Source of the DNA: Actinomycetota bacterium
Lineage (GTDB): Bacteria > Actinomycetota > JAHEXW01 > JAGVPG01
Length of the DNA stretch: 64,000 nucleotides
Reading direction: 5' to 3'
Assembly: GCA_020052375.1 (NCBI GenBank)
Contig: JAGVPG010000034.1
Span: forward strand, 7,660-71,659
Shown here: in pieces, positions 3,276 through 40,390 of the stretch
How the letters are laid out: every line of letters starts with the position of its first letter
Position numbering within the stretch: the stretch's first letter is position 1
Notes under the pieces: model-generated
What the model was told of the DNA's origin: nothing
Databases searched by the model: none
Seen by the model: the letters and a program-made list of their open reading frames with translations, nothing else
Translations under genes and position numbers: made by a program

Positions 3276-4247
3276 GTGCTTAGAGATGCTTGTGGGAGAA
3301 GGATAGATTATTTGCGGATATCGGTCATCGACCGGTGCAACCTACGGTGTGTTTATTGTACGCCGGAACAGGGCGTCGACCTTCTTCCCCGCGATCGCAT
3401 CCTTGCTTACGAAGAGATGCTGGCGTTCTCGAAAGTCGCCGTCATAAACGGGATTGACAAGATCCGGTTGACCGGCGGTGAGCCGCTTATCAGGAGGGAT
3501 ATAATCGGCTTCGTGGAGAGGATGGCCAAGATACCCGGCCTTAAGGACCTGTCTATGACCACGAACGCTATACTTCTAGAGGAACTTGCTCTACCGCTTT
3601 ATGATGCCGGGTTGCACCGCCTGAACATCGGCATCGACACGCTCGACCCCGGGAAGTTCAAGGAGATAACAAGAGGCGGCGATGTCAACCAGGCGATCAA
3701 GGGGATCGAGAAAGCGTTGGAAATCGGTTTTTCACCCGTCAAGATAAACGTCGTCATCATGAAAGGCGTCAGCGAAGACATAACCCCGTTTGTCAAGTTC
3801 ATCAAGGACTATCCGATACACGTAAGGTTCATCGAGTATATGCCTGTAAGCAACGGGTTAAAGTCCAAGTTCTTTGTGCCCATATCCAAGGTGCGAGACC
3901 AACTGAAGAACGTTGAAGGTGTGCATAAAGCTCCGGCGCCGGTCGGGTTCGGACCGGCCAGGGAGTATTATAAGGTCGGTGATTCGGCCGGCACGATAGG
4001 TTTTATCCCCGCCATGAGCGAGCATTTTTGCGAGGAATGCAGCCGGCTGCGTTTGACGGCCGATGGGAAGCTCAGACTTTGTCTTTTCTCAGATACAGAG
4101 GTCGACATCCTCGGCGGATTAAGGCCCAAAGTGGATGACAAAAAGTTGACCGCGCTGCTCAAAGAGGCTGTGAAACTCAAGCCGGCGGAGTATAGTATTG
4201 TAAAGCGTGACGGTAAAGGCCGCACGATGAGCCAGATAGGCGGCTAA
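3276..4247 (+). CDS. moaA: GTP 3',8-cyclase MoaA (radical SAM)
   Basis: IDYLRISVIDRCNLRCVYC is the MoaA CxxxCxxC cluster motif. A C-terminal second cluster region (CEECSRLRLTADGKLRLCLF) is present. The start is called at GTG 3276 after a purine-rich stretch; the longer ORF from ATG 3231 adds an Arg/Lys-rich leader encoded by GCAAGA tandem repeats. Confidence 0.9.
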   Translation: MLRDACGRRIDYLRISVIDRCNLRCVYCTPEQGVDLLPRDRILAYEEMLAFSKVAVINGIDKIRLTGGEPLIRRDIIGFVERMAKIPGLKDLSMTTNAILLEELALPLYDAGLHRLNIGIDTLDPGKFKEITRGGDVNQAIKGIEKALEIGFSPVKINVVIMKGVSEDITPFVKFIKDYPIHVRFIEYMPVSNGLKSKFFVPISKVRDQLKNVEGVHKAPAPVGFGPAREYYKVGDSAGTIGFIPAMSEHFCEECSRLRLTADGKLRLCLFSDTEVDILGGLRPKVDDKKLTALLKEAVKLKPAEYSIVKRDGKGRTMSQIGG

Positions 4248-16586: not shown

Positions 16587-16661
16587 TGGTGGAGGTGGGG
16601 GGATTCGAACCCCCGACCTCTGCGATGCGAACGCAGCGCTCTCCCGCTGAGCTACACCCCC
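16587..16661 (-). tRNA. tRNA-Ala (anticodon CGC)
   Basis: The reverse complement folds by hand into a cloverleaf: acceptor GGGGGTG/CACCTCC with G3:U70, D-arm GCTC...GAGC, anticodon stem CTGCG/CGCAG, loop TTCGCAT and T-arm GGGGG-TTCGAAT-CCCCC. A CCA end is encoded. Confidence 0.8.
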
Positions 16662-16994: not shown

Positions 16995-17483
16995 ATGAAA
17001 CCTCTTGTCAGTATATTGCTCGTAGCCGGTTGCGGATTGTGGGTGTTTATCGGATGGCGTATAAATCCGGAAAAGACGCGGCTGGCCTTGAAGGAAGCGT
17101 TAAGGCAATTCATCCTCATCCTCCCGTTTCTTATCGCGGCGTTCATCCTCGTCGGGATCATCAAGGTCTTTCCTCCCAAGGAATATCTGCACTTTGACCT
17201 CAAGTCGGTTCGCGGCACCATCCTGGGATTGATCATTGCGGCGTTTGCCGGAAGCATCCTATCCGGACCGCCGGTTGCTGTGTACCCGCTGGCAAAGACG
17301 ATCCTCGCGAACGGCGCCGGAGTGGCGGGTGTTGCTACATTCATTCTCGCCTGGACCGCGGTCGGTACTGTGACACTGCCTCTGGAGATCAAGCTTTTCG
17401 GCACGAAGTTTGCGCTGACCAGATGGCTTGTCATGCTCGTGATATCAGTTGTCATCGGGCTTCTGATGGGGCTGATATTATGA
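16995..17483 (+). CDS. Predicted permease, N-terminal half (DUF318/ArsP-like split permease)
   Basis: A four-TM 162-aa protein whose GAGVAGVATFILAWTAVGTVTLPLEIKLFG region is paralogous to the following ORF. Such permeases usually exist as one ~300-aa protein. Confidence 0.45.
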   Translation: MKPLVSILLVAGCGLWVFIGWRINPEKTRLALKEALRQFILILPFLIAAFILVGIIKVFPPKEYLHFDLKSVRGTILGLIIAAFAGSILSGPPVAVYPLAKTILANGAGVAGVATFILAWTAVGTVTLPLEIKLFGTKFALTRWLVMLVISVVIGLLMGLIL

Positions 17484-17980
17484 AGTTCAAACAGTTCGCC
17501 CGCGACAACTGGCCGATTGTATTGGTGCTCATCGCGTTGCTGGTCGTGATCTCCAGAAGGTTCGACAAGGTCGGAGAGACACTTTCCATCGGTTTCAAAG
17601 CCATGTGGGATATCACAGCCATCCTTCTCCCCATCTTTCTATTCATCGGGTTCTTCTCCGCCTGGATGGACGAGAAACGCCTTGTCAGGATGTTCGGCGG
17701 AAAGGTCACTATCAGAGAGTTTTTCTACGCGTCGGTTGTCGGCACGTCCTGGGTCGGACCGCTTGCCAGCTTGATGCCGCTTTTAAAGACCATGCTCGAC
17801 AAAGGCGCAAGCACAGCGGTCGTCGCAACCATCCTGGCGACCTTTGCCATCAAAGTCCCCTTCATCCCGCTGGAGATCAAACTGCTCGGCTGGCAGTTCA
17901 CCGCCCTACATAACGGCTTGATGCTAGCCGCCGCCCCCCTCGTCGGCCTCATCATGCAACGCGTGTCAGTAAGAAAGTGA
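17480..17980 (+). CDS. Predicted permease, C-terminal half (paralogous to 16995-17483)
   Basis: GASTAVVATILATFAIKVPFIPLEIKLLG aligns with the preceding ORF. The start is called at ATG 17480 overlapping its stop (ATGA). Confidence 0.45.
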   Translation: MKFKQFARDNWPIVLVLIALLVVISRRFDKVGETLSIGFKAMWDITAILLPIFLFIGFFSAWMDEKRLVRMFGGKVTIREFFYASVVGTSWVGPLASLMPLLKTMLDKGASTAVVATILATFAIKVPFIPLEIKLLGWQFTALHNGLMLAAAPLVGLIMQRVSVRK

Positions 17981-18021
17981 GTGCCGCAACGCACATCAAT
18001 ATTTCAAAACACCTTATAAGC

Positions 18022-19236
18022 TTAAATGAGTGGATTGGTTCCTTCATTAAGTATCTCTAAGTATCGGCTATACGCATAGTACCTGTTGCGTGATTTACCG
18101 GTTATTTCCTTTAAGATACCTATCTTCTCAAGTTTAGAAATAAGTGTTGTGGCCGTCTGTTTTGTAACGTCGAGTTTATGGGCGACCTCACTCACATTTA
18201 CTATCGGTGCTGTAAACAACCAGTCAAGAAGTATGATAGCGGAAGAACTGGAGATGCCGGAGTTCACTATTTTTTGTGTATCGGCTTTTTGGAGCGAGAT
18301 TATTTGCTTCGCGGAGGATGCTGCCTGGTCTGACACTTCAAGAATACCTTTCAGGAAGAAATCGACCCACTCTTCATAAGCGTCTTTATCTCGCACCTTA
18401 GACAGTAGATCGTAGTATTCCTGGCGGTTACGTTTCAGGTAGTAACTTAAGTAAAGAAGGGGTCGGTTTAGAATATCCTGCCAGCATAGATAGAAAGTGA
18501 TCAACAGTCTCCCTATACGTCCGTTACCGTCCAGGAATGGATGGATCGTCTCAAACTGATAATGTATTAGCGCGCATTTGACCAGTGGCGGCATCTTACT
18601 ATCTGAATGGACGAACTTCTCAAAGTCACTCATCGCGTCGATAACATCTACCGGAGGTGGCGGAACGAATGTCGCGTCGGCAAGCAGAGCTCCGCTAGGC
18701 CCGATCCAATTCTGGCTTTTTCTGAATTGGCCGGGGTCTTTATCGCTGCCGCGGACACCTGCCATTAAGACACCATGTATCTCACGGATCAGTCTAAGAG
18801 AAAACGGCAGATCCTGAAGTCTTTCTAAACCATGGTTCATCGCTTTTACATAGTTTATTACCTCTGCAACGTCATCGACACCTTTTATCGGTTTAGTGAG
18901 AGCTTCAAACTCAAGTACATCTATAAGTGATGATTGTGTTCCTTCTATTTGTGAGCTTAGTACCGCTTCTTTTTTTACAAACATAGCGACAAAAAGATCT
19001 GCATTGGGAAGGATGTAGGAAATACCGTCTAGTCTTGCAAGAGCTCGATCGGCATTCGATAAAAGAACAAGCATATCCTGGTCCAGAGCGATTTGCGGTA
19101 CCGGGGGTAAAGATTTTGGTATGAATGCCGAGTATCCGGCAGATTGCTGTACATAATAGCCACTTCGTTCGCCCAAGATGCCTCCTTCTATTCTAGTTAG
19201 TAAAGTAAAATTGATGATACTTGTATTTTGAGTCAT
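18022..19236 (-). CDS. Fic family protein (adenylyltransferase/AMPylator family) with a C-terminal winged-helix domain
   Basis: The canonical Fic motif HPFLDGNGRIGRLL is present. The C-terminal ~70 aa, ...VSEVAHKLDVTKQTATTLISKLEKIGILKE, is wHTH-like. Confidence 0.85.
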   Translation of the reverse strand: MTQNTSIINFTLLTRIEGGILGERSGYYVQQSAGYSAFIPKSLPPVPQIALDQDMLVLLSNADRALARLDGISYILPNADLFVAMFVKKEAVLSSQIEGTQSSLIDVLEFEALTKPIKGVDDVAEVINYVKAMNHGLERLQDLPFSLRLIREIHGVLMAGVRGSDKDPGQFRKSQNWIGPSGALLADATFVPPPPVDVIDAMSDFEKFVHSDSKMPPLVKCALIHYQFETIHPFLDGNGRIGRLLITFYLCWQDILNRPLLYLSYYLKRNRQEYYDLLSKVRDKDAYEEWVDFFLKGILEVSDQAASSAKQIISLQKADTQKIVNSGISSSSAIILLDWLFTAPIVNVSEVAHKLDVTKQTATTLISKLEKIGILKEITGKSRNRYYAYSRYLEILNEGTNPLI

Positions 19237-19277
19237 ATAATCAAGATGTCTTTATTATAGTACCCTTAAGCAAGTGC

Positions 19278-19299
19278 TTAGTCAAGATATCTTGACTAA
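19278..19299. promoter_or_regulatory. Perfect 22-bp palindrome TTAGTCAAGATATCTTGACTAA in the Fic / 19341 divergent promoter region, a putative operator
   Basis: Read directly from the sequence. The same TCAAGA-NN-TCTTGA core occurs twice upstream of the DUF169 gene (20907-20926 and 20947-20966). Confidence 0.5.
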
Positions 19300-19340
19300 T
19301 ATATATTGCAACTATTTAAGTACTAGCTTAATGTGGAACC

Positions 19341-19715
19341 ATGAAAAGTATCTTTTTTTACATGGCTGGGGCTTTGACGATGATCTGGGGCATAGCGCAC
19401 TTGTTCCCGACCAGGAATGTGGTCAGGGATTTCGGGGAAATCAGTCAGGATAACAAACACATAATCACCATGGAATGGATCATCGAAGGTGTCATACTGA
19501 TCTTCTTGGGCGTGCTATTGATCCTGGTGACATCGATCAGTCCGATGGCTGCGGTTTCTACCGCTGTTTACTGGTCCGTCTTCGTTATGCTGAACGTTCT
19601 TTCAATAGTATCGATATTTACCGGTTTCAAAGTGAACTTCCTTCCGTTCAAACTCTGTCCGGTCATATTCACGATCTCCGCAGCACTGATCCTCATCGGC
19701 ATCATAATTAAATGA
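19341..19715 (+). CDS. Small four-TM membrane protein, function unknown
   Basis: A 124-aa hydrophobic ORF divergent from Fic. It ends in a family B hairpin. Confidence 0.4.
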   Translation: MKSIFFYMAGALTMIWGIAHLFPTRNVVRDFGEISQDNKHIITMEWIIEGVILIFLGVLLILVTSISPMAAVSTAVYWSVFVMLNVLSIVSIFTGFKVNFLPFKLCPVIFTISAALILIGIIIK

Positions 19716-19763
19716 TCTTGTAGCAGCCGACCTTCAGGTCGGTCACATCTTGCCTCATATCTG

Positions 19764-20621
19764 CTAAGGAGTTGTATCTTCTATAATTACCGGTTGTGGA
19801 GGCGGGCTGGAAGGCATGGGCGGGTAGCGAGTTCTGGACGGGACTGTACCCGAGTAACCGCTGTTAGAACTAGAAGTACTCGATGACCCACTGCTAGAAC
19901 TGGTGATTACTAATGATTCGGTTGTGAAACTATTTACGCCGTCTGTCCAGCTGCCATCATCTGCCAAAGCTGTCCAGGTTATAGTGTAATCAGTTCCATA
20001 GCTAAGTTGCCCGAATGTGAAAGTGACTTGCTTTTTATCCGGACTCCACTGCGGTGCGCCAAGCGGAACCGGACTCATCATGATCATGTCTTTGAGTGGC
20101 TTATCAGAGGTATAAGTGATCTTGCCGACATCTATGCTAATCCCTTGAGAGCCATTCGGGATATCGGTCGTTATTTGGGGTGAAGTAGGTGTCCTGAACT
20201 CCACAATGAATGGTTTTTTCTCCAGCAAAGAATCGGGACATTCTCCAAGAAGTCCGCTATAGTCTTCTAGTTTAACCCTCATCGTCCGGCCTTGTGGCCA
20301 GTAGTTAAGGCGAGAAATATAGATAGTCCTTTTGTTTACTGACAAGCTGTATTTAAACGGTATTTCTATTTCCGCGTTCTTCTCATCGACGTAGCATGCT
20401 TTTAGGATCAGTTTATCCGGATCGAGGCAACAAGAGGTTTCGATCTCGACAGTAGTTGTGGCTTTTACGACCTTATTTTTTTCCGGCTGGAATTTAACAA
20501 CATACGCTAGCGCTGGTAGCGAGGTAGCTTGATTGTTGTTCAGCGCAATAAAAGTAATTATTACTGCCGGTAGTGCAATCACTAAAGCTACCGGCCAGAT
20601 CAATTTCGGATTATTAAACAT
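19764..20621 (-). CDS. Membrane-anchored secreted protein with a Ser/Pro-rich C-terminal tail, function unknown
   Basis: An N-terminal TM or signal (LIWPVALVIALPAVIITFIAL) and a C-terminal SSSGSSSTSSSNSGYSG...PPMPSSPPPQP low-complexity tail. Confidence 0.4.
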   Translation of the reverse strand: MFNNPKLIWPVALVIALPAVIITFIALNNNQATSLPALAYVVKFQPEKNKVVKATTTVEIETSCCLDPDKLILKACYVDEKNAEIEIPFKYSLSVNKRTIYISRLNYWPQGRTMRVKLEDYSGLLGECPDSLLEKKPFIVEFRTPTSPQITTDIPNGSQGISIDVGKITYTSDKPLKDMIMMSPVPLGAPQWSPDKKQVTFTFGQLSYGTDYTITWTALADDGSWTDGVNSFTTESLVITSSSSGSSSTSSSNSGYSGTVPSRTRYPPMPSSPPPQPVIIEDTTP

Positions 20622-20906
20622 TCAACCACCATCCGCTCATTATTTGTTATATCTTATGAAAACCACAAATATATGTCAACGCTCTATCGTAGAATCAGGA
20701 TTAATCCAGGTTAGCGAGTGTGGAATGTTCCCCGAATTGCAGTTTGCGAATCGCCAATTATTTTCTAATTGCCGACCTTCAGGTCGGCTGATCTCTGTAT
20801 GTAAAAAGACCAAATAAGTATTTTTTAAGTCATGAAATATGAGTTTGACCTATTTCAACTTAAACCTAAAACTTGAAATAAGAAACCGAAGTACTTACTA
20901 CCGCTA

Positions 20907-20966
20907 TATTCAAGACATCTTGAATACAAATGTGATTAGGCTTCCTTATTCAAGACATCTTGAATA
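20907..20966. promoter_or_regulatory. Two copies of the 20-bp inverted repeat TATTCAAGACATCTTGAATA, spaced 40 bp apart, upstream of the DUF169 gene
   Basis: Copies at 20907-20926 and 20947-20966. The arms TATTCAAGA/TCTTGAATA are perfect complements. Confidence 0.5.
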
Positions 20967-21010
20967 AGCCACCTGCTCCACTCTACTGCGCTCTATGCTA
21001 GACTTTTCCC

Positions 21011-21751
21011 ATGAAGAGCAATCTCGCACGTATGATTAAACTCAAGACATCGCCAGTCGTTGTTCTTTGGACCGATGAGAAACCGGCTGACGCGATCCAG
21101 TGCAAGGAAGGGAAATGGGCTTGCGTCATATCGTTCCTCGTCCAAGCCGCCAAGGGAAAAACGGTCGTATTCGATGAGAGGACGGTCACCTGCCGAGGAG
21201 GCAAGACTGGCTTAGGATTCGGCCGCTACGAGCCCGGCTCGATAGAATATTTCCTCTCAACAGGGGAAAAGGGCGAGGAAGGCGAGCGCTACTGGAAAAC
21301 TCCTGAACTCGCTAGGTCCTTCATCGAAAGCCTGCCCGAATTGAAAGTGCCCACAAAATACGTCGTCTTGAAACCTCTCGAGCAGCTTGAAGAAGGCGAG
21401 ACACCCAAAGCGGTCGTTTTCCTTGTAAACCCGGACCAGCTATCGGCTCTCATCACGCTATCCAACTACGACCGGCCTACAGGCGACAATGTGGTCCACT
21501 ACGCCGGCGCCGGCTGCCACAGCACGGTCCTGTTCCCGATCCTCGAAGCAGATTCCAATCAACCAAAAGCAATAATCGGCCTGACCGATATCTCCGCCCG
21601 CAAAGTCATCGACAAAGACATCCTCTCCTTCAGCGTCCCCTACAAACGCTTCCTCGAACTGGAATCAAACGCAGAAGACAGCTTCCTGAGGACAGATGAA
21701 TGGAAAAGCATAGCTAGGCGGTCTTCCTCCCCCTTGAAGGGGGAGGAATAA
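21011..21751 (+). CDS. DUF169-family protein (uncharacterised, COG2043-like)
   Basis: WTDEKPADAIQCKEGKWACVISFLVQAAKGKTVVFDERTVTCRGGKTGLGFG is a Cys pattern and GLGFG motif recalled from DUF169 proteins. The C-terminus reads into a family A repeat. Confidence 0.55.
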   Translation: MKSNLARMIKLKTSPVVVLWTDEKPADAIQCKEGKWACVISFLVQAAKGKTVVFDERTVTCRGGKTGLGFGRYEPGSIEYFLSTGEKGEEGERYWKTPELARSFIESLPELKVPTKYVVLKPLEQLEEGETPKAVVFLVNPDQLSALITLSNYDRPTGDNVVHYAGAGCHSTVLFPILEADSNQPKAIIGLTDISARKVIDKDILSFSVPYKRFLELESNAEDSFLRTDEWKSIARRSSSPLKGEE

Positions 21752-21779: not shown

Positions 21780-24209
21780 CTAACTCTTGTCTTTTATCTT
21801 AGAGAGGAACCTGTCAAATATTTTCTCAGACATCTGAAACCAGCTTCCGACTAATATCAGGTAGAAACCGGCGAAGCCGACGAATGGCGCAAGACGGAAC
21901 TGAACAGAAGAAACGTTGGTCAAATAGGCGATGGTAAGAAGTATTGCCGGCCCGACGATGACGCCGAACTGGTCAGCCCTTTCAGCCCACTTAGGATCTT
22001 TGACTGTGATCTTCGCTCTTCCTTTTCTGATCAATGATATGAACGGCAGAGCGGTCAGAAAGCCGCCTACAGTTATCGCGTAGAAGATCCACCAATTTTC
22101 GAATGGGAAGGGCCTGGGTTCGCTCATTCCCAGATGAACAAGCTCGGCGCCGTAGACGCCGATTATCAAGGCCTCCAGGAACTCCAAAGTAAACTGGGCC
22201 GAGCGCGAGCCCTCTTGGACCAGCAAGCTTGAATACTGTTGAACATTCTGACTCACGTGCATGCCAAGCATATCAAGACGCTCGACTTTATGAAGAAGGT
22301 TCCGGTAGAGGCTTTCCAGATGGAACACGTGATTGGTCTTCTCGATCAAATCGAAGAAGAGAGAACTGCCGCCCTTTCTGCTTAGCGGATCCTCGATAGT
22401 CTCCGCGAGAGCTATTTTACGATGGTCGATCCCCCTGGTGACATCGGCAAGTCCCTCGATCACTTCGGAAAACTCTTCTTCTAAGCTCTTCTCCTTGAGA
22501 ACCTCAAGCGCGGCTGAGATGCTCCTTATATCATGGGTCACTAAATGGTCTGAAGTGGCATACGCGTACCAGAGGATCCGCTGCCACTGAATGGTGTCAC
22601 TCAGTTCATCCAGATACTTATACACATTGGCCATCTCTGGTACGAGCCGCACCTCATTTGCGTTACCGGGTGCGTAGTATACACATAGCGCGCTTCTTAT
22701 GTGGACGGCCATATGGACGAGATCGGAATAAAAAACATTCTCGAGAGACCTGATAGCGGGCTCCCAGTCCGATCTGATTACTACCCATTTTGATTTCATG
22801 AGGACTCTGACAAGATCTTTCTTGTATCTCGCAAACGTGTTACTGAAGTGCTCAACGACTTGGTCTGGTGTTGAGGCCGAGTTCTTGAAGGGACTCGGAG
22901 CGCTTAATAATGTTGATACATAGGGGTGCTCCTCAATGCTTGGAGATAAGGATGGAAAGGTCAGGTTTGGTATTGTGCTCATCAGTTGTTCTTTAAGGAT
23001 GATCTCGCTGCGCTCCGGGCGTTTCCTTCGCTCGGGCCGGTTGACAAACCGGACTATGTCTTCATCCTGCAGCAATGCTTGACTTAGTTCCGCCAAAAAG
23101 ACGTCCCGGGTGATGTGCTGGAAATACTCAAACATGGAAGACGCTGAATCCCTCGATTCTTTCCAGAGAAGGCGCGGCATATGTTCGCGAGAGAAGCCAC
23201 GATCAAGGTTCTCGATGTCTACGATGTCGTCGACCGTTAGCTCTCCATTTATTAGTGTTACCTGGTCAACAGCGGTACGTAGACGGTTCCGGATGAGATC
23301 TTTTGTTTCAAGAGATGCGGGGTATTTCTCAAGCAAGGTATCGATGCCAACCATCGATCGCTTCTTTACCGCATCCAAAATCGCCTCTCGTAGCTCTTGG
23401 GCTAGTTTTGTTGTCTTATCGGCAGGAGACGGGATTGCCGCGCTCTTGAGTTCCATGGTTGTGAATATGATCTCGTCGACGAGCTCCTTTAGGCCCTGCT
23501 CATTGGCTAGACGAACTCCCAGTCGTACACAACCGAAGCCCGTAGCCAGTAGTCGAATAGTCGACGCAATACGGATTCCGGGTACGTCTCTAAACTCTGA
23601 ACTGGAAGGGAGCTTTGCACTTATATCGGGGAGTATACTTGGATTCTCTATGGCCAGGCTCGCAGCTTTAAATCTGGTCTCGATGTAAGGCTGTTTGCGC
23701 TCCAGATAACCGCGGGTGCCCTTGCTATGGCCGGAGTGATATTTGGCTTGTGTGAGAAGAGGGACCCGACTTTCGTTTATCTTTTTCGACACGAACTTCA
23801 TCATGTTCTCGGGAGCTTTGGCTTCGTGTTCCCGGATCAGTTCCGATAATTCGAGATAGAGAAGATCCTGTCCGACTTCGCGAAACTCATCAGAAGTGGC
23901 CGGTAGCTCTCTGACCAGCGCCCTGACCTCGCCTGCGAGACTCTGATTTGATCTGCGCCGATTCGGATTGCGACTAGTACCACTAATACACCGGTCCAGT
24001 ATCTCCTTTGCTTTTCTTACAGGAGGCGCTTCTGTACCGAAGGCGGATTCCAAGCGGTCTTGTGCGGCCAGGAGGGACGATTGCAGATCGTATTCTTGTT
24101 CGTTTAGGAAGCCGGTTATGCCGTGGCGAAACGTCTCCCATCGGTCGACTCTGAAAGGATAGAGGAACTGGATAGTCGCCTTGTTAGTGTAAAACTGCTC
24201 GTGCTGCAT
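21780..24209 (-). CDS. Large hypothetical protein (809 aa): a soluble alpha-rich N-terminal ~650 aa plus three C-terminal TM helices
   Basis: A long clean ORF with no motif I can assign. The C-terminus FPFENWWIFYAITVGGFLTALPFISLI...IVGPAILLTIAYL...FVGFAGFYLILVGSWF is hydrophobic. Confidence 0.5.
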   Translation of the reverse strand: MQHEQFYTNKATIQFLYPFRVDRWETFRHGITGFLNEQEYDLQSSLLAAQDRLESAFGTEAPPVRKAKEILDRCISGTSRNPNRRRSNQSLAGEVRALVRELPATSDEFREVGQDLLYLELSELIREHEAKAPENMMKFVSKKINESRVPLLTQAKYHSGHSKGTRGYLERKQPYIETRFKAASLAIENPSILPDISAKLPSSSEFRDVPGIRIASTIRLLATGFGCVRLGVRLANEQGLKELVDEIIFTTMELKSAAIPSPADKTTKLAQELREAILDAVKKRSMVGIDTLLEKYPASLETKDLIRNRLRTAVDQVTLINGELTVDDIVDIENLDRGFSREHMPRLLWKESRDSASSMFEYFQHITRDVFLAELSQALLQDEDIVRFVNRPERRKRPERSEIILKEQLMSTIPNLTFPSLSPSIEEHPYVSTLLSAPSPFKNSASTPDQVVEHFSNTFARYKKDLVRVLMKSKWVVIRSDWEPAIRSLENVFYSDLVHMAVHIRSALCVYYAPGNANEVRLVPEMANVYKYLDELSDTIQWQRILWYAYATSDHLVTHDIRSISAALEVLKEKSLEEEFSEVIEGLADVTRGIDHRKIALAETIEDPLSRKGGSSLFFDLIEKTNHVFHLESLYRNLLHKVERLDMLGMHVSQNVQQYSSLLVQEGSRSAQFTLEFLEALIIGVYGAELVHLGMSEPRPFPFENWWIFYAITVGGFLTALPFISLIRKGRAKITVKDPKWAERADQFGVIVGPAILLTIAYLTNVSSVQFRLAPFVGFAGFYLILVGSWFQMSEKIFDRFLSKIKDKS

Positions 24210-24456: not shown

Positions 24457-24666
24457 ATGATAAAAAACACTAGTGTTTGGAACGATATTGAACGCGAACA
24501 GATGAGAATGAGAACCGTGGACTACGCCTCAAACCTAAGGATCTTCGAATCCTTATGGAAAGAAGCAATAGCACTCCGCGCCCTTCCGCTTTCCGACCCC
24601 CTAGCCGGGATAGAAACAGATATCCAAATGGCCAAGATCCTCAACTCATGTTCCAAGACATCCTAG
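24457..24666 (+). CDS. Small hypothetical protein (69 aa) overlapping the start of the downstream nucleotidyltransferase-fold gene
   Basis: An ORF with a 19-nt overlap onto the 24648 start. No recognisable motif. Confidence 0.3.
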   Translation: MIKNTSVWNDIEREQMRMRTVDYASNLRIFESLWKEAIALRALPLSDPLAGIETDIQMAKILNSCSKTS

Positions 24667-25202
24667 CTCGTCTTGCCGGCATTCTTAAAAAAGCAGATAT
24701 TCCCTATATCGTTATTGGAGGCCAGGCGGTATTACTGTATGGTGAACCGAGGCTGACTGCCGACATAGATATAACGGTAGGACTCGGGATCGATGAGTTA
24801 TCGCGCTTGCTGACTGCAGGGGAGGAAAGCGGTTTGGTTCCGCTAGTTTCCGATATTGAGGCGTTTACCAAAGAAACCATGGTCGTTCCGTTAAAAGACA
24901 AAACGACCGACATCCGGATCGACTTCGTGTTGTCATTCACTACATACGAGGCCGCTGCTATAAAGAGGGCTCGAAAAGTAAAGATAGGTGGCATGGAGGT
25001 CAACTTTGCTTCACCCGAAGATGTTGTAATTCATAAGATATTCGCAGGACGTCCGAGAGACATAGAAGACTTACGCGGGATCTTGCTTAAACAAAAAGAT
25101 ATAGATGTCGGCTACATTGAGACTTCGCTCAAGGAGTTCGATCTCACATTCCCCGATAAGAGATTCTCGAAGACATTCAAAGATCTCATCAGCGAGCTAT
25201 AG
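24648..25202 (+). CDS. Nucleotidyltransferase-fold protein (minimal NTase-like; possible toxin/antitoxin-type component)
   Basis: IVIGGQAVLLYGEPRLTADIDITV fits the G[GS]-x9-13-D-x-[DE] pol-beta NTase motif. The start is called at ATG 24648; the track ORF begins at 24555 with a low-complexity leader. Confidence 0.5.
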   Translation: MFQDILARLAGILKKADIPYIVIGGQAVLLYGEPRLTADIDITVGLGIDELSRLLTAGEESGLVPLVSDIEAFTKETMVVPLKDKTTDIRIDFVLSFTTYEAAAIKRARKVKIGGMEVNFASPEDVVIHKIFAGRPRDIEDLRGILLKQKDIDVGYIETSLKEFDLTFPDKRFSKTFKDLISEL

Positions 25203-27194: not shown

Positions 27195-28988
27195 CTAGCG
27201 AAGTCTACCCGATGTCCATTCCCACAACCAGAGAACTCTCCTTGTGATGCTCCATTGAGTTTTGATCAATGTTCTAATATGGCTCATTAGTGATCCCTTA
27301 CCAATAGTGTTCAAAAGAACAGACGCTTTTAGCATCCCAGGTCTATCTTGAATTGTTTTAGATCTTAAGAACAACAACTCGATCTCGCTGTCACTTACAT
27401 GTTTTCCCGTATCCAGTCTTTTCTTAATGTCCCATCTTGAAAAGTTGATTAGACCGAGAATACTGTCGGTTTCAGCAAATGAGGACGTTAATGCAGAAGA
27501 ATCTAAAATAATTACTTCAGGTAGTTCAAAATACTTATCTATACCAGTAAGTTCTTGATAGACTCTTGTGATTTGTGCCCTCGCATGAGGATTAACAATA
27601 ACGCGGTCACTAAGATCAGACAGCTTTTGAAAGGCAAAAGTTTCTCGCCCAAAGCTAGCAATTCTGTTATATAGTGTAAATTTTCTAAGATCTCGACGAT
27701 AATGAAGAAAATCAATCAATGCTTGAACGCAGAAATCTAGATATGATGTATCTTTGCAGGTAGCAAGATTCAAGTTATCTATTTGCTTAAGGGTTTTTCT
27801 AAAATACCACCCAGCTCTAGTTATTCTAAAACCGAGCCAGTAATTACCTGCAATTCGATAGTTTCTGAGTAAAGCCATCTTTGGATTTGCGACCAGCGTC
27901 TTTTTCGAGTAGCCTAACGCTTTTTTATATTTACCCAAGTGGCTATAGCCATGATCAAGTAACTCATTTATCAGTAACTTGAAGTCTTGACTATTTGAAG
28001 AATTAAGAAAAGAGTTTGCAGTTTTTTCAAGCCTAATAACCTCATCGCCAATTCCCATTGACGAAAACATTTTCATTGTAGAAATGGTTTTTTGAGAATC
28101 GTGAATGTGAGGACATAGGATGCTCCACTTGTGTTTTTGACTTGGGATGTTCTTCTTGAAGTCAAAAGACCATTTATTTGCAAGATGTTCAAGAAAAGAA
28201 CCATCACTATGTATTTCGTCAACCCAAACATGGACTTTTGCATTACAATTTTGCAGTCCTCTTGTAATCGCGGAAGATATTGAGCTGTTACGACTGTGTT
28301 TCACCCAGATTACTGACAGGTGCTTTAAGTCCATTGTTAGATCTTGAAAAAAAGGATTTACATCAAAGTAGTCGCTACCACTATAGCCAAGAAAGACAAG
28401 AAACCTTACGTTCTTAAGTATTTTCTTAATTCTATCCATGCTTTCTTCTGGTAATCCTTTAGCAACATTGTTTATGGTTATTCCAAGACGAAGTAAAGAC
28501 CTTTGGTCATCCGAGTATTTACCATGGTAGTGGAATAGGTTTGTTGGTTCCGTAGTTATTTTACTTAGACTGAGAGGCTGCTGGTATGCTTTCTCGATGC
28601 ATGTGTCAAAGTTTGCAGTTATGTGATAGCCATTATCAATAATGTGCTGAGCAAAAAACTGGTGATAGTGATTTGGTACCGCGTTTCCGTAACTACTAAG
28701 TGTTTTTAAAGACTCAATACCGTTTACTGAAACGACGCTATTAAGGATAATCTCCAAGCGTGGATATTTTTTCCGGTTCCCCTCGCTATCGACCATTTTG
28801 GCATTTGAGAACCTGTTTAAAATTGTCTCCCATGTTTCAGGAAAACAGAAGTGCTCTATTGTACTGTGGGTTAGCTCAATACCAAGCGGTAAATTAGTTG
28901 GTGCTTCCTTTGAAATTCCAGCACCTGTCCAAAAACAAACCTCTTCAGGATTTCCGATACTTTCTACTAGATCATTGATATAAGTCAC
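27195..28988 (-). CDS. SIR2-like domain protein (SIR2_2/DUF4020-type N-terminal domain + ~350-aa helical C-terminal domain)
   Basis: FWTGAGIS (Rossmann Gly motif), ITANFD (the TTNYD-type motif), HYHG and VFLGYSGSDYFD are the conserved blocks of defence-type SIR2 domains. GTG start. The gene is AT-rich. Confidence 0.7.
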   Translation of the reverse strand: MTYINDLVESIGNPEEVCFWTGAGISKEAPTNLPLGIELTHSTIEHFCFPETWETILNRFSNAKMVDSEGNRKKYPRLEIILNSVVSVNGIESLKTLSSYGNAVPNHYHQFFAQHIIDNGYHITANFDTCIEKAYQQPLSLSKITTEPTNLFHYHGKYSDDQRSLLRLGITINNVAKGLPEESMDRIKKILKNVRFLVFLGYSGSDYFDVNPFFQDLTMDLKHLSVIWVKHSRNSSISSAITRGLQNCNAKVHVWVDEIHSDGSFLEHLANKWSFDFKKNIPSQKHKWSILCPHIHDSQKTISTMKMFSSMGIGDEVIRLEKTANSFLNSSNSQDFKLLINELLDHGYSHLGKYKKALGYSKKTLVANPKMALLRNYRIAGNYWLGFRITRAGWYFRKTLKQIDNLNLATCKDTSYLDFCVQALIDFLHYRRDLRKFTLYNRIASFGRETFAFQKLSDLSDRVIVNPHARAQITRVYQELTGIDKYFELPEVIILDSSALTSSFAETDSILGLINFSRWDIKKRLDTGKHVSDSEIELLFLRSKTIQDRPGMLKASVLLNTIGKGSLMSHIRTLIKTQWSITRRVLWLWEWTSGRLR

Positions 28989-29305: not shown

Positions 29306-32300
29306 ATGAGGTGGCACATCGTGGTAAAACCAAAAAATACTATTGGCAAAATTGCAGGACTTAATACCAACAATGAGAAAATAGCAAATGATGATCAGAT
29401 AGCCAAATTTGTACAAGAATACGGTGAAAGTATACGAGTTCAGGATCCAAAAGAAGCTTTTGTAGATCCACAGATTAAGAACCTAAGCCTTCAATTGGCA
29501 AATTCTATTAGCGAATCATCACAAGGAACAATCTTAGATATAGGTTGTGGTAAAGGTATTATTCTCCAACGACTAGCAGATATCGATGAATTCAAGACTC
29601 GAGAATGGTTCTATATTGGTGTCGACTATCCAGAAAAAACACAAGAAGTTTTAAGACTTGCTGCCGAGCTAGAAGTACATCGAAGAGTAGATGTGATTGC
29701 GCCAGATATCTTATATGCTGATTGGATCTCTTCAGAGGAAACAGAAAATCCGATTCTTGTTATTATTCGTAACGTTTTTCATGAACTAAATATTGAAGAG
29801 ACAGCAAAATGTATTTATACCCTAAGAACGAGACTTTCAAAAAAAGATACTATTTTGATTCAAGACCTACTTGTTTTTCCAATAGTGGAACGAGGTAATG
29901 TTTGCTGGGATGTTAATGCTTTTAAACAGATGCTGATCTCTTGTGGATTTAAGTGCACGATGGTCACTGAGCCAACCACTAGAGGAAATGGATGGTTTTC
30001 CGCATATGTAAAAGTTTCGAATCATTCTCGAATCAGTCTAAGTAATATCCACGCCGAGGTTCTTAATGCAAGACTTGCCCAGTTTAAGCGTTGGCAAGAC
30101 CTTGATACACTAATAGCAGGCAAGACAAAACCGAGGCTTGCACCAATTGCCCGTATCGACTTAGACCTCCAGCGAGCTTCTCTCCAAGCGCAACTAAACG
30201 AGGCAGGTGCATCCGGTGTTTTACCGCTTGATAAAAAAGATCAGGCACGCGTATTTTATCAAACATTTTCGAGCATTTTAGAAAACTTTAATGTCGAGAA
30301 CCTGTTAGGTAGAAAATCCGAACTGAATCTTTCCCCATATTTCCGTGATAGAGCACGACATCAAGATAGCCTCGAGCAGTTCTTATTAGACGATACAAAT
30401 ATTGCGATAATTCAAGGTCATGCTTTGATGGGAAAAAGTGTTCTAACTGCAGAAGTCCTAGCACGAAGGGCACATCGTCGTCAACCAATGATCATCGATG
30501 TCCAAGATACTTCAAGCGTTTGGAGCCTAATCGAAAGGTATTTAGGTGCTCTTGGATGCAACATATCATATGAGATCTTGTCTAAGCTAAAGAGTGCACG
30601 TTTATACGACGCAGTAGATCCACTGTCAGCACTTGTTTATAGAACTGCTTGTCACTCCGTCGTTGTATTTGATCATTTTGAGGCTTTACTAGATCCAGAG
30701 GGATGTCTAATTGATCCTGAGATTAAGACTTTTCTTATAATGCTAGCACGTGCTCCTAAAGCTAAAGTAATAATTACTACACGTCGACAGCCTGATTTTT
30801 GCTTCTTACCACCCGGAACAAAGATAAATGATAAACAAATGCCTGTTAGTAAACTCCCAAAGAACGAAAAGCACGTTATAAATATTTTAAATGACATTGT
30901 TGATTTAGCTTCTTTGGGTATTTCAGAGTACCCAGAAGGATTGATTACTGCTATAGGAGGACATCCATTCTTAGCCGTTACTGCAGCGCAGATAATAAAA
31001 AAAGAGGGTCCATCATCACTCGACGACAAGGAATTCCTTGAAATATTACGTTTGTTTCTCCGTGAAGAGTTGCTGAAAAGGATTGCTACAGATGAAGCAA
31101 TGGCGACAATAGATCTTGCTTCAAAAGTGAGAATACCAATACCTTTGAGAATGTTTGAAGTTCTAGCAGGTAAGCAAAGCGTCAAAGATGCAATAGAACT
31201 TGGACTTATTTACAGATCGTATGATTATTCCAGGGGTGATCTATTTACAGGAATTGGAATACTTCGCGACTCCATGGATGTGAATTATAGGGGATTATCG
31301 TCAGACTCAACTACAGATACGGCAGTCGACGCAAGGCTGAGACAGTTACATGAAAGAATTGCTAACTATTACGAAAAACTCTACAGACAAGATCATGATC
31401 CTCGTTGGATTCGCGAGTTGCACTATCACACCGTTGCTGCTGGTAATATGGAGAGAATTACGCAGTTCGGAATTCTCTACAAGAGCGAGCTTTTTGCAGC
31501 AGGTGAGTACTGGTTCCGCTTAAAGAAATATGACGCCGCTTTTGATATATTCAAAGCAGCAAAGGACTTAGATTTTACATCTTATAGGTTGGATATGCGC
31601 ATCGCCGCTTGTATGATGCGTATTGGTCGGATTGCGGAAGGAGAGAAACTATACGAAGAGCTTATCAAATCCCACCCCACATTCAACGGCATAAAAAGCT
31701 CATTTATTGATAGTCTGCTTTTTATTAAGAGATATTCAGACGCTTATAAAAAGTTAGAGGAATATCAATACAAAATGAGGGACAATACATATGTTGCTAA
31801 TCAATACGGTAGAGCATATTTTGGATTGCGGATGTATCGTAGAGCGATAGAAGCTTTTGACTATAAATGTAAAAATGACCCGGATGAATTTGGCTACTGG
31901 TGGCTAGCTCGCGCGTACCAATATGTTGGTGAACAAAATATGGTTGGAAGTGTTCTTGAAAAAGGTCTTATCATATTTAGTCAGAGTGAGCGTCTTAGTT
32001 TGAGCTACGCTGCGCATCTTTTACGACTTAATACAGCAAAAGATCGCAAAAAGACTATAATGCTTCTCCGCAGCCTTCATACTCTTTCACCTTTAAACGG
32101 AGGTATTCTGCAACAGCTATGTAAGGCATTATGTTTAGATGGAAATAGTTACGAGGCGAGGGGTTTAGCTGCGCAGTTCAATGACAAAATAACACCTGAA
32201 CGTTATAGAATACCAATGTGGATTGAGGTTTATATTGCTGAGGGTAAATATGAAGATGCTCTATCGCTGCTTCGTGAAATCCCAAATGACGATGAGCATT

Positions 32301-32578
32301 TAGTAGGCTTAGTTAAAAAAACATACCTCCGCTGGTCAAAATCTCGTGATAGCGATAAAGACCGGCAAGATATTGCACATCGTGGATTAGGCATACCGAT
32401 AAGTGCTGACCTTAACAACAACATTCCAATCTTAGTTTTGTCACTACGCCTTGCGCATCTCTCCAACAATGAAAAGGCTGCTAAAGACATAGCTGCTGAG
32501 ATTAAAAAAATAAACCCAGCATTTGCGCAGACTATACAGGAAGTTGAAACTCCGTACTTTGAAGATGAACCATACTAA
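29306..32578 (+). CDS. Three-domain protein: class I SAM-dependent methyltransferase (N) + STAND/NB-ARC NTPase (middle) + TPR repeats (C)
   Basis: ILDIGCGKGIIL is MTase motif I. GHALMGKS is Walker A, VVVFDHFE is Walker B, KVIITTRRQ is the hhhTTR motif and GGHPFLAVTAA is GxP-like. The C-terminal ~400 aa holds repeated Tyr/Ala-rich TPR-like helices. It is AT-rich and divergent from the SIR2 gene. Confidence 0.65.
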   Translation: MRWHIVVKPKNTIGKIAGLNTNNEKIANDDQIAKFVQEYGESIRVQDPKEAFVDPQIKNLSLQLANSISESSQGTILDIGCGKGIILQRLADIDEFKTREWFYIGVDYPEKTQEVLRLAAELEVHRRVDVIAPDILYADWISSEETENPILVIIRNVFHELNIEETAKCIYTLRTRLSKKDTILIQDLLVFPIVERGNVCWDVNAFKQMLISCGFKCTMVTEPTTRGNGWFSAYVKVSNHSRISLSNIHAEVLNARLAQFKRWQDLDTLIAGKTKPRLAPIARIDLDLQRASLQAQLNEAGASGVLPLDKKDQARVFYQTFSSILENFNVENLLGRKSELNLSPYFRDRARHQDSLEQFLLDDTNIAIIQGHALMGKSVLTAEVLARRAHRRQPMIIDVQDTSSVWSLIERYLGALGCNISYEILSKLKSARLYDAVDPLSALVYRTACHSVVVFDHFEALLDPEGCLIDPEIKTFLIMLARAPKAKVIITTRRQPDFCFLPPGTKINDKQMPVSKLPKNEKHVINILNDIVDLASLGISEYPEGLITAIGGHPFLAVTAAQIIKKEGPSSLDDKEFLEILRLFLREELLKRIATDEAMATIDLASKVRIPIPLRMFEVLAGKQSVKDAIELGLIYRSYDYSRGDLFTGIGILRDSMDVNYRGLSSDSTTDTAVDARLRQLHERIANYYEKLYRQDHDPRWIRELHYHTVAAGNMERITQFGILYKSELFAAGEYWFRLKKYDAAFDIFKAAKDLDFTSYRLDMRIAACMMRIGRIAEGEKLYEELIKSHPTFNGIKSSFIDSLLFIKRYSDAYKKLEEYQYKMRDNTYVANQYGRAYFGLRMYRRAIEAFDYKCKNDPDEFGYWWLARAYQYVGEQNMVGSVLEKGLIIFSQSERLSLSYAAHLLRLNTAKDRKKTIMLLRSLHTLSPLNGGILQQLCKALCLDGNSYEARGLAAQFNDKITPERYRIPMWIEVYIAEGKYEDALSLLREIPNDDEHLVGLVKKTYLRWSKSRDSDKDRQDIAHRGLGIPISADLNNNIPILVLSLRLAHLSNNEKAAKDIAAEIKKINPAFAQTIQEVETPYFEDEPY

Positions 32579-39053: not shown

Positions 39054-40390
39054 CTTTCGCACATTTGTAAGGACGGTGGCCTCTTTCTGGTTTAATTGGA
39101 AGTGAGAAGACAACCTTTTAGACCAGAGAGGAGAACCACCGCTATGAACAAGTCTACACCAAAAGATCTCGGTAAGGTGATAGAGATCGACGAGGGGAAG
39201 ATCCGCGACCACTTAGGCGAGATCGTCCGGGACACCGTCGAGGAGACATTGAACGGCATGCTCGACGCCGAAGCCGACCGGCTTTGCCAGGCACAACGCT
39301 ACGAGAGAAGCGCAGACAGAACCGACACAAGAGCTGGTCACTACCAAAGAAAGCTTCATACCAAAGCCGGAGAGGTCACTTTGAACATGCCCAAGCTGAG
39401 GAAGCAAACATTCGAGACGGCGATCATTGAACGCTACCGCCGGCGGGAGACCTCGGTCGAGGAAGCCTTGATTGAGATGTATTTGGCCGGTGTTTCCGTC
39501 AGACGAGTCGAGGACATCACAGAAGCCCTCTGGGGTACACGAGTCAGCCCGGGGACGGTATCCAACTTAAACAAGAAGGTCTACTCCCGCATCGAGGAGT
39601 GGAGAAACCAGCCGATAGTCGGCACTCATCCTTATGTCTACCTCGACGGCATCGCCCTCAAGCGTAGCTGGGGTGGCGAGGTGAAGAACGTATCTATCCT
39701 GGTCGCCGTCGGGGTCGCATCCGACGGCTTCCGTGAGATCCTCGGTATTGTCGAGGGCGCCAAGGAGGACAAAGCCGGCTGGACTTCTTTCTTAAGACAC
39801 CTGAAAGAACGCGGCCTCTCCGGTGTCAGGCTGGTCATCTCAGACGCATGTTTAGGTCTTACCGAATCTTTGGCCGACTTCTATCCCGAAGCTAAATGGC
39901 AGAGATGCACCGTCCACTTCTACAGAAACGTCTTTTCTGTAGTCCCGTCCGGCAAGGTGAGAGAAGTCGCCTGCATGCTGAAAGCGATCCACGCCTCCGA
40001 AGACAAAGACGCAGCCCGTGAGAAAGCCGAGGCTGTGATCAGAAAACTTAAGGAAGCGAAGCTCTCTGCCGCCGCCAAGAAAGTAGAAGAGGCCATCGAA
40101 GAAACGCTCACCTACTATGACTTCCCCGCATCTCACTGGGTCCGCATCAGAACAAACAACCCGCTGGAAAGGTTGCTCCGTGAGATCAGAAGAAGGACCA
40201 GAGTCGTCGGATCCTTCCCCGACGGACACTCTGCCCTGATGCTGTCGGCCGCACGCTTAAGACACGTTGCTGGAACTAAATGGGGAACCAGGAGATATCT
40301 AGTAATGGAACTGCTCGCGGACTACGAAGTCGCCGCGGGAGTCGGTGCATAAACGATGCTGGAAGGAGGCCGCCAGATAAAAGTGCGAAA
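39054..40390 (+). mobile_element. IS256-family insertion sequence (~1.34 kb)
   Basis: Imperfect terminal inverted repeats: left CTTTCGCACATTTGTAAGG at 39054 and right ...CCAGATAAAAGTGCGAAAG ending at 40390 (9 terminal nt are perfect complements). It encloses a single IS256/mutator-type transposase ORF. Confidence 0.7.
39144..40352 (+). CDS. IS256 family transposase
   Basis: MNKSTPKDLGKVIEIDEGKIRDHLGEIVRDTVEETLNGMLDAEADRLCQAQRYERS...YLDGIALK...LVAVGVASDGFREILG...QRCTVHFYRN are IS256 (mutator) transposase hallmarks. A DDE region is present. Confidence 0.88.
   Translation: MNKSTPKDLGKVIEIDEGKIRDHLGEIVRDTVEETLNGMLDAEADRLCQAQRYERSADRTDTRAGHYQRKLHTKAGEVTLNMPKLRKQTFETAIIERYRRRETSVEEALIEMYLAGVSVRRVEDITEALWGTRVSPGTVSNLNKKVYSRIEEWRNQPIVGTHPYVYLDGIALKRSWGGEVKNVSILVAVGVASDGFREILGIVEGAKEDKAGWTSFLRHLKERGLSGVRLVISDACLGLTESLADFYPEAKWQRCTVHFYRNVFSVVPSGKVREVACMLKAIHASEDKDAAREKAEAVIRKLKEAKLSAAAKKVEEAIEETLTYYDFPASHWVRIRTNNPLERLLREIRRRTRVVGSFPDGHSALMLSAARLRHVAGTKWGTRRYLVMELLADYEVAAGVGA

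Follow-up and report, generated by a model that had tools for sequence, protein, structure and literature searches.

Do similar palindromes in front of two neighbouring genes mark a shared regulator and, if so, which protein binds them? This question is raised by a 64-kb stretch of an Actinomycetota contig (JAGVPG010000034.1; also held as contig Ga0394676_52088 of Joint Genome Institute (JGI) metagenome 3300038466), referred to here as the window, in which a gene for a Fic protein whose C-terminal domain is a winged helix-turn-helix (wHTH), and a gene of the DUF169 family are both preceded by palindromic boxes. An initial annotation of this DNA had proposed one shared dimeric regulator, possibly the Fic wHTH itself. 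The proposal gains support from the way in which the boxes travel and drift with Fic, from the precedent of the Fic proteins CccR and SoFic, and from homology between the DUF169 boxes and a Fic operator on a related contig, L215. The explanation that we consider likely overall is that the boxes are operators of the wHTH of the adjacent Fic, which would repress itself through them, and that the pair in front of DUF169 would still be bound. Its parts differ in strength: autoregulation of Fic is very probable, and for present-day control of DUF169 by Fic we lean only slightly towards a positive answer.

Phased palindromes at two sites

The 20-bp palindrome TAnTCAAGAnnTCTTGAnTA is present in four strong copies within the window, arranged as two pairs at 40–41-bp spacing. 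One pair lies in the divergent promoter region between Fic and a membrane-protein gene, and the other upstream of DUF169, ending 45 bp before its ATG. A repeat finder returned the same element as one 20-mer with copies at 19238, 19279, 20907 and 20947 (41, 1,628 and 40 bp from start to start). Its core, TCAAGAnnTCTTGA, is found exactly three times, at 19282, 20910 and 20950, where shuffled sequence predicts 0.01 occurrences and none of 100 shuffles reached three copies, so that the motif is not at chance frequency in the window; a further core site with one mismatch begins at 19241. Similarly, the family consensus derived from Fic relatives, TATTMAAGNNNNCTTKAATA, matches only these four sites, boxes A to D (Table 1), when up to two mismatches are allowed (shuffle mean 0.1). 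The sites are genuine, and chance does not account for them.

The perfect 22-bp palindrome that had been reported near Fic (box B) was confirmed, as were the two identical copies 40 bp apart upstream of DUF169 (boxes C and D). The sites of the initial annotation therefore stand, but its layout of a single Fic-side site facing a DUF169 pair does not, as the Fic side is itself a phased pair accompanied by a weak third box, which has a counterpart at the same position in L003, L005, L128, L129, L167, L210 and L214, all of them contigs with related Fic genes. Boxes C and D are identical across exactly 20 bp, and their flanks and the 20-bp spacer are unrelated, which points to a constraint on the sites and rules out tandem duplication as their source. 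They also fit the family consensus better than the boxes of the window's own Fic do.

How the Fic-side boxes relate to their gene depends on the start codon. The JGI annotation gives 404 amino acids (aa) from ATG 19236 and the NCBI annotation 384 aa from TTG 19176. Of the two, the TTG at 19174–19176 most likely begins the gene, because it is the NCBI call, because homologues of 376–388 aa align from MxxRSGxY and because a GGAGG (19181–19185) precedes it with a 5-nt spacer. The distance of 42 bp between palindrome and Fic start given earlier assumed the ATG; counted from the likely TTG, the palindrome begins 102 bp upstream. With this start, all three Fic-side boxes fall within the 164-bp intergenic region between Fic and the membrane-protein gene. 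Under the 404-aa model, the weak third box would be coding and box A would end 2 bp upstream of the ATG.

On the other side, the DUF169 gene probably starts at ATG 21011, which is preferred because the window shares it with L215 and L208; the alternative ATG 21032 lacks such conservation. The sequence TGCTAsACT in front of this start is conserved in the same three contigs, with no Shine-Dalgarno sequence there, which suggests that it is the extended −10 element of a leaderless DUF169 mRNA; if it is, box D would be centred near −54.5 and box C near −94.5. We also considered whether the AT-rich region holds archaeal TATA boxes and rejected this in view of the Shine-Dalgarno sequences, the sigma-70-like hexamers and a bacterial Ccm system on the contig. 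Within the first DUF169 codons lies a lone half-site, TCAAGACATC (21037–21051), 92 bp from box D, and L215 conserves it too. It does not follow the phase of the array, and coding constraint is its probable explanation.

Boxes conserved upstream of Fic

If the boxes belonged to Fic, they would be expected wherever related Fic genes occur. All close orthologues for which upstream DNA is available carry two to four boxes at 39–41 bp in front of Fic, in differing gene neighbourhoods. The boxes and Fic lie after an 810-aa gene in L003 (Fic 78% identical; boxes AAGTAAAGATGTCTTGACTA and TAGTAAAGACATCTTGACTA and a weak third), between relB and glyQ in an Actinomycetota metagenome-assembled genome (L005–L007, 64%; TATCTAAGAAATCTTGAATA, TATTCAAGATATCTTGAATA and a third), beside AbiEi in L214 (64%; three boxes), after an ABC transporter in L210 (63%; four boxes at exactly 41 bp) and after a two-component system in L212 (61%; two boxes). 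More distant examples come from Thermodesulfovibrionia (L128, 60%; three boxes at 41 bp), Atribacterota (L129, 55%; three at 40 and 39 bp) and Parachlamydiales (L167, 51%; three at 41 bp). Box-bearing Fic loci span Actinomycetota, Nitrospirota, Atribacterota, Chlamydiota, Cyanobacteriota and further groups, and Fic aside they have no neighbour in common. Across orthologues the box arms are conserved and the central 4 bp are variable, and the sequence of the boxes drifts along with the divergence of Fic.

The position of the promoter within these arrays is equally regular. In L003, L005, L128, L167, L210, L212, L214 and L215, the −35 element (TTGAAT or TTGACT) is the right arm of a box and stands exactly 17 bp from a −10 element (TAnnnT) that adjoins the next box, so that the 41-bp period and the promoter are interlocked.

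To put numbers on this association, we assembled 86 Fic loci from many phyla (46–100% identity) and examined 200 bp upstream of Fic in each. The exact core, and then the looser TCAA-N6-TTGA, proved too narrow for relatives of 56% identity or less, and we therefore relied on a motif-free autocorrelation (best 16-mer direct repeat at each lag from 22 to 70, with at least 12 of 16 matches) and on a broader consensus. The autocorrelation is dominated by lag 40 (18 loci) and lag 41 (21 loci), with 0–3 loci at nearly all other lags; 37 of the 86 loci score at lags 39–42, and the minor peaks at 31 and 50–51 come from a cyanobacterial sub-architecture. The repeated words share the half-site TATT(C/A)AAG. 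When up to four mismatches are allowed, TATTMAAG-N4-CTTKAATA matches 53 times in 33 of the 86 upstream regions, as against one match in coding, three in shuffled and one in −600 to −400 control sequence. With at most three mismatches there are 27 matches in about 19 kb of Fic upstream DNA versus 12 in the remaining 527 kb or so, a pair of the latter being boxes C and D in front of the window's DUF169.

Fic is the only gene common to the box loci, and the boxes drift with it; the simplest binder is therefore Fic's own wHTH. That the boxes travel and co-evolve with Fic also argues for autoregulation, as for CccR. Suggestive in the same sense is position 2 of the predicted recognition helix, which appears to track box type, with Q or E where the boxes are of the TTCAAG kind and P where they are of the TTAAAG kind (7 to 3 versus 1 to 13; Fisher p = 0.002, uncorrected for phylogeny).

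The cyanobacterial sub-architecture is seen on two plasmids of model organisms, pAQ6 of PCC 7002 (L216, 2735–2994) and pSYSX of PCC 6803 (L217, 2735–2994), where a variant box, TATTAACGAAAGCGATAAT, directly adjoins the Fic ATG and a split palindrome, TATTAACGAAA-N9-TTTCGATAATA, lies about 51 bp upstream of it, a layout that accounts for the minor peak at 50–51 bp. Fic relatives occur on plasmids among toxin–antitoxin and restriction–modification genes, including Synechocystis pSYSX and Picosynechococcus pAQ6. In L005, a solitary box with two mismatches, TATGCGAGATATCTTGAATA (4087–4106), stands 914 bp upstream of Fic between recO and relB and is possibly an auxiliary site. In L093 (2645–2703), box B and its flank recur as an exact 23-nt match, TTAGTCAAGATATCTTGACTAAT, and another box lies at a distance of 40 bp; these boxes stand 83–136 bp upstream of a 344-aa open reading frame. 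The contig has a high GC content and ends 67 bp from them, and a Fic gene past this end is possible.

The Fic protein

A role as the binder presupposes a DNA-binding domain in the window Fic. Its Pfam matches are Fic_N (1.6e-27), Fic (6.4e-21) and HTH_13 (30.3 bits, cutoff 26.1), and SoFic-like_C scores 24.2 bits, slightly below its cutoff of 27. The PADLOC SoFic profile PDLC03963 is matched over positions 5–359 of 361 (E = 2e-126, 420 bits), phmmer against the PDB gives 8e-37 for SoFic, and matches to solved SoFic and EcSofic-type structures lie at 1e-37 to 5e-40. The active-site motif HxFx(D/E)GNGRxxR is present as HPFLDGNGRIGR, with H212, P213, D216, G217, N218, G219, R220, G222 and R223 invariant across 24 homologues. 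The class II inhibitory motif (S/T)xxxE(G/N) appears as SSQIEG at residues 74–79, N-terminal to the Fic core and invariant in the alignment. From these comparisons the window Fic is assigned to the SoFic-type class II Fics with a C-terminal winged helix, a family that includes AMPylases and phage defence proteins.

The AlphaFold2 monomer model agrees with this assignment (predicted local distance difference test score, pLDDT, 82; predicted template modelling score 0.84). It places helices at 311–320, 328–335 and 339–351, followed by a β-wing, in a region with pLDDT 84–93; helix 339–351 is the predicted recognition helix. The model also shows a long helix at residues 33–55, and the SoFic family dimerises through an N-terminal helix. 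In full-length Foldseek comparisons, the template modelling (TM) score is 0.73–0.78 against SoFic and about 0.54 against both CccR and CbFic2.

Origin of the DUF169 boxes

Why should a Fic operator stand in front of DUF169? Most informative is the closest relative, L215, which comes from another sample and in which DUF169 is 91% identical and its 809-aa neighbour 93% identical to the window proteins. There, a different Fic, Fic2, is divergent from DUF169; it shows 59% identity across 155 aa and has a TTG start preceded by an AGGAGG Shine-Dalgarno sequence. The shared intergenic region holds three boxes at 40–41 bp (TGTTCAAGAAAAACTAAATA, TATACAAGCTATCTTGTATA and TAGTCAAGACATCTTGAATA) among which a well-formed Fic2 promoter (TTGACT, 17 bp, TACTAT) can be read. 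Homology between the window and L215 begins exactly at the left edge of box D and continues into DUF169, and the last box lies 45 bp from the DUF169 ATG in both. To the left of box D the two differ, with Fic2 in L215 and unrelated DNA plus a 285-aa gene in the window. The edge of homology at box D, together with the three-box operator of L215, argues that the DUF169 boxes descend from a Fic operator. From sequence comparison we therefore regard the DUF169 pair as homologous to a Fic operator and the Fic once adjacent to DUF169 in the window as replaced, with a Fic of the same core specificity now 1.7 kb away.

Related contigs differ in their arrangement. The order is Fic, the 124-aa membrane-protein gene, the 285-aa gene, boxes C and D, DUF169 and the 809-aa gene in the window; Fic2, three boxes, DUF169 and the 809-aa gene in L215; and an 810-aa gene, boxes, Fic and a DUF169 gene convergent with Fic in L003. 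L208 reads tRNA, hairpin, DUF169, two small genes and the 809-aa gene, with neither Fic nor boxes in the available sequence. These differing orders in four related contigs indicate that Fic cassettes have been exchanged at this spot. The 809-aa protein, found by tblastn at 82–93% identity in L003, L208 and L215, always accompanies DUF169 there, and its C-terminal third appears to be membrane-embedded. A tblastn search at E up to 10 found no relic Fic coding sequence near the window DUF169. Nor did a search for recurrence of the divergent Fic–DUF169 pair find a close case: the closest relative of Fic2 is only 57% identical, and the matches are mostly fragments.

Proposed regulation and alternative explanations

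In the regulation that we propose, the Fic wHTH would bind the palindromes, presumably as one dimer per palindrome, and the phasing of 40–41 bp, about four helical turns, would place all boxes on one face of the DNA. On the Fic side, box B would cover the −35 element, box A the edge of the −10 element and the transcription start, and the weak third box the leader. Bound Fic would then repress its own transcription and, via box B, also that of the divergent 124-aa membrane-protein gene, which is probably co-repressed; such self-repression would keep the level of a toxic AMPylase low and buffered. The DUF169 pair, taken over from the operator of another Fic, would bind the resident Fic and could place DUF169 under Fic-dependent control. 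At boxes C and D, Fic might modulate DUF169 in either direction, join the Fic-side array, 1.6 kb distant, in a DNA loop, or have no effect.

Several points weigh against this proposal, most of them on the DUF169 side. The C–D spacer has no usable −10 element in either direction, and both boxes lie upstream of, rather than over, the likely DUF169 core promoter, so that classical occlusion does not apply. The DUF169 relatives in L208 (77% identical) and L209 (68%) have no boxes, and L208 keeps the candidate DUF169 core promoter without them; any control of DUF169 by Fic would thus be a recent and dispensable addition. At flanking positions 3 and 18, the boxes of Fic itself depart from C and D. 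The tally that links the recognition helix to box type is uncorrected for shared ancestry. The survey of sites and Fic genes covers the 64-kb window, and a second Fic paralogue or more sites may be present elsewhere in the genome. Finally, it is from sequence that we infer binding by the window Fic, the one dimer per box, repression at Fic, and both the sign and the existence of an effect on DUF169.

Part of this evidence also suits the alternative that fares best. In it, the boxes beside Fic serve autoregulation, and the pair at DUF169 is a relic of a Fic cassette exchanged through recombination; this pair would now play no part in DUF169 expression and be at most a decoy or titration site. 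The missing −10 element, unlike every intact Fic promoter examined, the break in homology to L215 exactly at box D, the placement of the boxes upstream of a conserved candidate −10 that box-less L208 retains, and a place of Fic, with respect to DUF169 and the 809-aa gene, that differs in each of the four related contigs are what a relic would leave. However, an unselected relic should decay, whereas boxes C and D are perfect, identical 20-bp consensus matches amid diverged or replaced DNA, their 40-bp phasing is kept, and a Fic of the same core specificity is encoded nearby. We consider the relic explanation unlikely, though it is the one to be taken most seriously beside ours.

A more far-reaching version of our proposal, drawn by analogy with CbFic2 and in our view a long shot, is that SoFic-type Fics form phased arrays at 41 bp whose binding to DNA would repress transcription and also gate AMPylase (toxin or defence) activity. 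The operator copies retained at DUF169 would then mark this protein, perhaps with its 809-aa partner, as a functional component or target of the Fic system. If true, it would provide the first functional handle on the DUF169 family.

We think it very improbable that the palindromes are bound by another transcription factor of the host, with its gene elsewhere, and that the Fic wHTH is uninvolved. The TTGAAT and TTGACT arms do resemble −35 hexamers, and pairs of similar form, GTCAAGAwwTCTTGAC, are found at 43-bp spacing in archaeal-looking contigs whose available flanks lack Fic. Yet the boxes accompany Fic across many phyla without any other common neighbour, their divergence parallels that of Fic, no regulator gene is found near either box pair among the window genes, and direct promoter binding is known for CccR and SoFic. 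The pairs in archaeal-looking contigs have the form (T/G)T(C/A)AAGAwwTCTTGAC and resemble box B (L025, 12302–12356; L055, 4446–4500; L059, 3166–3220, the same as L099; L091, 8316–8370; L095, 3749–3803); the contigs carry Hdr-like genes and secreted proteins with an ANF(F/M)P motif, and their 43-bp pairs may belong to another regulator. A metagenome scan for AAGAnnTCTTGA-N26-31-AAGAnnTCTTGA returned mostly low-complexity sequence and tandem repeats and tells little about a regulon; among the matches listed, none of 120 loci had Fic in its flanks. A scan of viral contigs for the paired box gave 0 matches.

Least probable of all, to the point of being negligible, is that the palindromes are structural elements such as RNA hairpins, terminators, repetitive extragenic palindromic (REP)-like repeats or mobile-element ends: box B was flagged as terminator-like by a simple scan and the surrounding island does contain a genuine repeated hairpin family (CCGACCTnnAGGTCGG, nine copies), but every box is either upstream of a gene or flanked by divergent starts and none follows a gene, their stems are AT-rich (box B, the sole one flagged, has three GC pairs), conserved arms around a variable central 4 bp are how half-sites behave, the phasing is fixed at 40–41 bp, target-site duplications are absent and only four strong copies occur in 64 kb.

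Comparison with known systems

The proposed self-repression has precedents among Fic proteins. CccR of Yersinia pseudotuberculosis, a class II Fic with a C-terminal HTH (PDB 7xux), represses its own promoter and requires dimerisation to do so, through the operator AGATAATCAT-N26-ATGATAATCT near −35 and −10 (PMC9755527). As at CccR, symmetric sites in the window lie over the regulator's own predicted −35 and −10 elements, with TTGACT in box B and TACTAT adjoining box A. The CccR operator, however, consists of two 10-bp inverted repeats with a 26-bp spacer, whereas the window and its relatives have two to four full 20-bp palindromes 20–21 bp apart; the window Fic is also structurally nearer to SoFic, and the window has no type VI secretion context. 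By analogy, then, the mechanism would correspond to that of CccR, with a different operator architecture.

SoFic of Shewanella oneidensis (SO_4266, PDB 3eqx) binds, as a dimer and not as a monomer, to the first 100 bp of DNA upstream of the gene that encodes it; the text of that paper mentions no operator, palindrome or consensus and reports no second target gene (bioRxiv 10.64898/2026.07.09.737422). In the promoter sequence given in its Table S2, we find ATGTCGAT half-sites at −107, −68 and −28 and inverted ones at −137 and −57, that is, a period of 39–40 bp, with one full palindrome, ATGTCGATTGAATCGACAT, inside the bound fragment. SoFic and the window protein thus share family and domain architecture (2e-126) and the same phased promoter design, but the half-site differs, ATGTCGAT in SoFic versus TATTCAAG in the window.

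EcSofic of Escherichia coli H397 is a toxic, dimeric SoFic-type AMPylase neutralised by the 47-aa antitoxin AS1, which is encoded downstream (PMC12249575). The window likewise has a SoFic-type protein in a defence context, but no AS1-like downstream open reading frame: no small antitoxin gene directly follows Fic, with 41 bp between its stop at 18022 and the end of a convergent ArsP-like gene at 17980. In CbFic2 of Coxiella burnetii (PDB 8cil), a secreted effector targeting histone H3, DNA binding drives dimerisation and stimulates AMPylation and deAMPylation; only random DNA was used and no specific operator is known (PMC10628234). CbFic2 resembles the window protein in combining wHTH and Fic. 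A more remote parallel comes from the AbiEi-type wHTH autoregulators of toxin–antitoxin and abortive-infection modules, for which Hampton et al. (2018) reportedly found cooperative binding of the winged-helix protein to inverted repeats that occur as a pair in its promoter, leading to negative autoregulation; the DNA binder there is reportedly the antitoxin, a protein separate from the toxin. In the window, the toxin-like enzyme itself carries the wHTH.

The kind of mechanism suggested by these analogies, self-repression by a wHTH-Fic, is therefore already known. Two things appear from the sequence comparisons to be new: an operator architecture, conserved throughout the SoFic branch, in which full 20-bp palindromes form phased arrays that interlock with the promoter, and the pair of operators that DUF169 has kept upstream of it; we found no description of either in the searchable literature. 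SoFic-type Fics are widespread single-gene anti-phage or toxin modules, and the study of their control is just beginning. The locus and its relatives offer a concrete candidate operator, arrays of TATTMAAG-N4-CTTKAATA at 40–41 bp; among the relatives are the model-organism plasmids pSYSX and pAQ6. DUF169 is a candidate first heterologous target. Furthermore, the locus illustrates how operators may be left behind and reused as defence cassettes are swapped within an island.

Genomic context

Table 1. Boxes, predicted promoters, genes and repeats of the window, in window coordinates
Feature	Position	Strand	Remarks
SoFic-type class II Fic, 384 aa	18022..19176	−	Fic_N + Fic + C-terminal wHTH; proposed box-binding protein
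Weak third Fic-side box, TAGTAAAGTAAAATTGATGA	19198–19217		Fic 5′ leader; 40 bp from box A; 4 mismatches to family consensus
Box A, TAATCAAGATGTCTTTATTA	19238–19257		One core mismatch; 41 bp from box B; adjoins predicted Fic −10, covers predicted transcription start
Predicted Fic promoter	19257..19285	−	−35 TTGACT (19280–19285) inside box B; 17-bp spacer; −10 TACTAT (19257–19262)
Box B, TTAGTCAAGATATCTTGACTAA	19278–19299		Perfect 22-bp palindrome; overlaps −35 of both predicted divergent promoters
Predicted promoter of 124-aa membrane protein	19279..19307	+	−35 TAGTCA; 17 bp; −10 TATATT
124-aa (or 117-aa) membrane protein	19341..19715	+	No Pfam family; divergent from Fic
Box C, TATTCAAGACATCTTGAATA	20907–20926		0 mismatches to family consensus
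Box D, TATTCAAGACATCTTGAATA	20947–20966		Same as box C; left edge of homology to L215 Fic2–DUF169 intergenic region
Candidate extended −10, TGCTAGACT	20996..21004	+	Ends 6 nt before DUF169 ATG
DUF169 gene, 246 aa	21011..21751	+	Pfam DUF169, 4.7e-49
809-aa protein	21780..24209	−	No Pfam or PADLOC match; convergent with DUF169; context, outside operator
DUF6036/AbiEii-like nucleotidyltransferase	24555–25202		Low-GC stretch
SIR2-like protein	27195–28988		Low-GC stretch
mad2-like protein	29306–32578		Weak match; low-GC stretch
IS256/Mutator transposase	39096–40352		Low-GC stretch
Hairpin copies	19727, 20772, 24296, 26556, 27005, 40975, 46243, 46526, 47410		Repeat family of the low-GC stretch

The two box sites lie at the edge of a low-GC stretch at 18000–47500 (0.37–0.47 versus 0.54 in the flanks), which begins just past a tRNA-Ala gene (16587–16661, minus strand) and looks like an integrated defence or variable island (Table 1). 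All nine 16-nt copies of its hairpin, CCGACCT(TC/GA/AA)AGGTCGG, are intergenic within this island, where shuffles lead to an expectation of 0, and L208 has the same hairpin upstream of DUF169 (358–375). The hairpin, which differs from the Fic boxes, makes up a repeat family of the REP-like or terminator type. Beside Fic, two adjacent and overlapping half-size genes for ArsP_1-type permeases are found on the plus strand (16995–17483 and 17423–17980); an ArsP_1 gene also lies near the 67%-identical Fic of L004, and the adjacency of ArsP_1 and Fic may be conserved.

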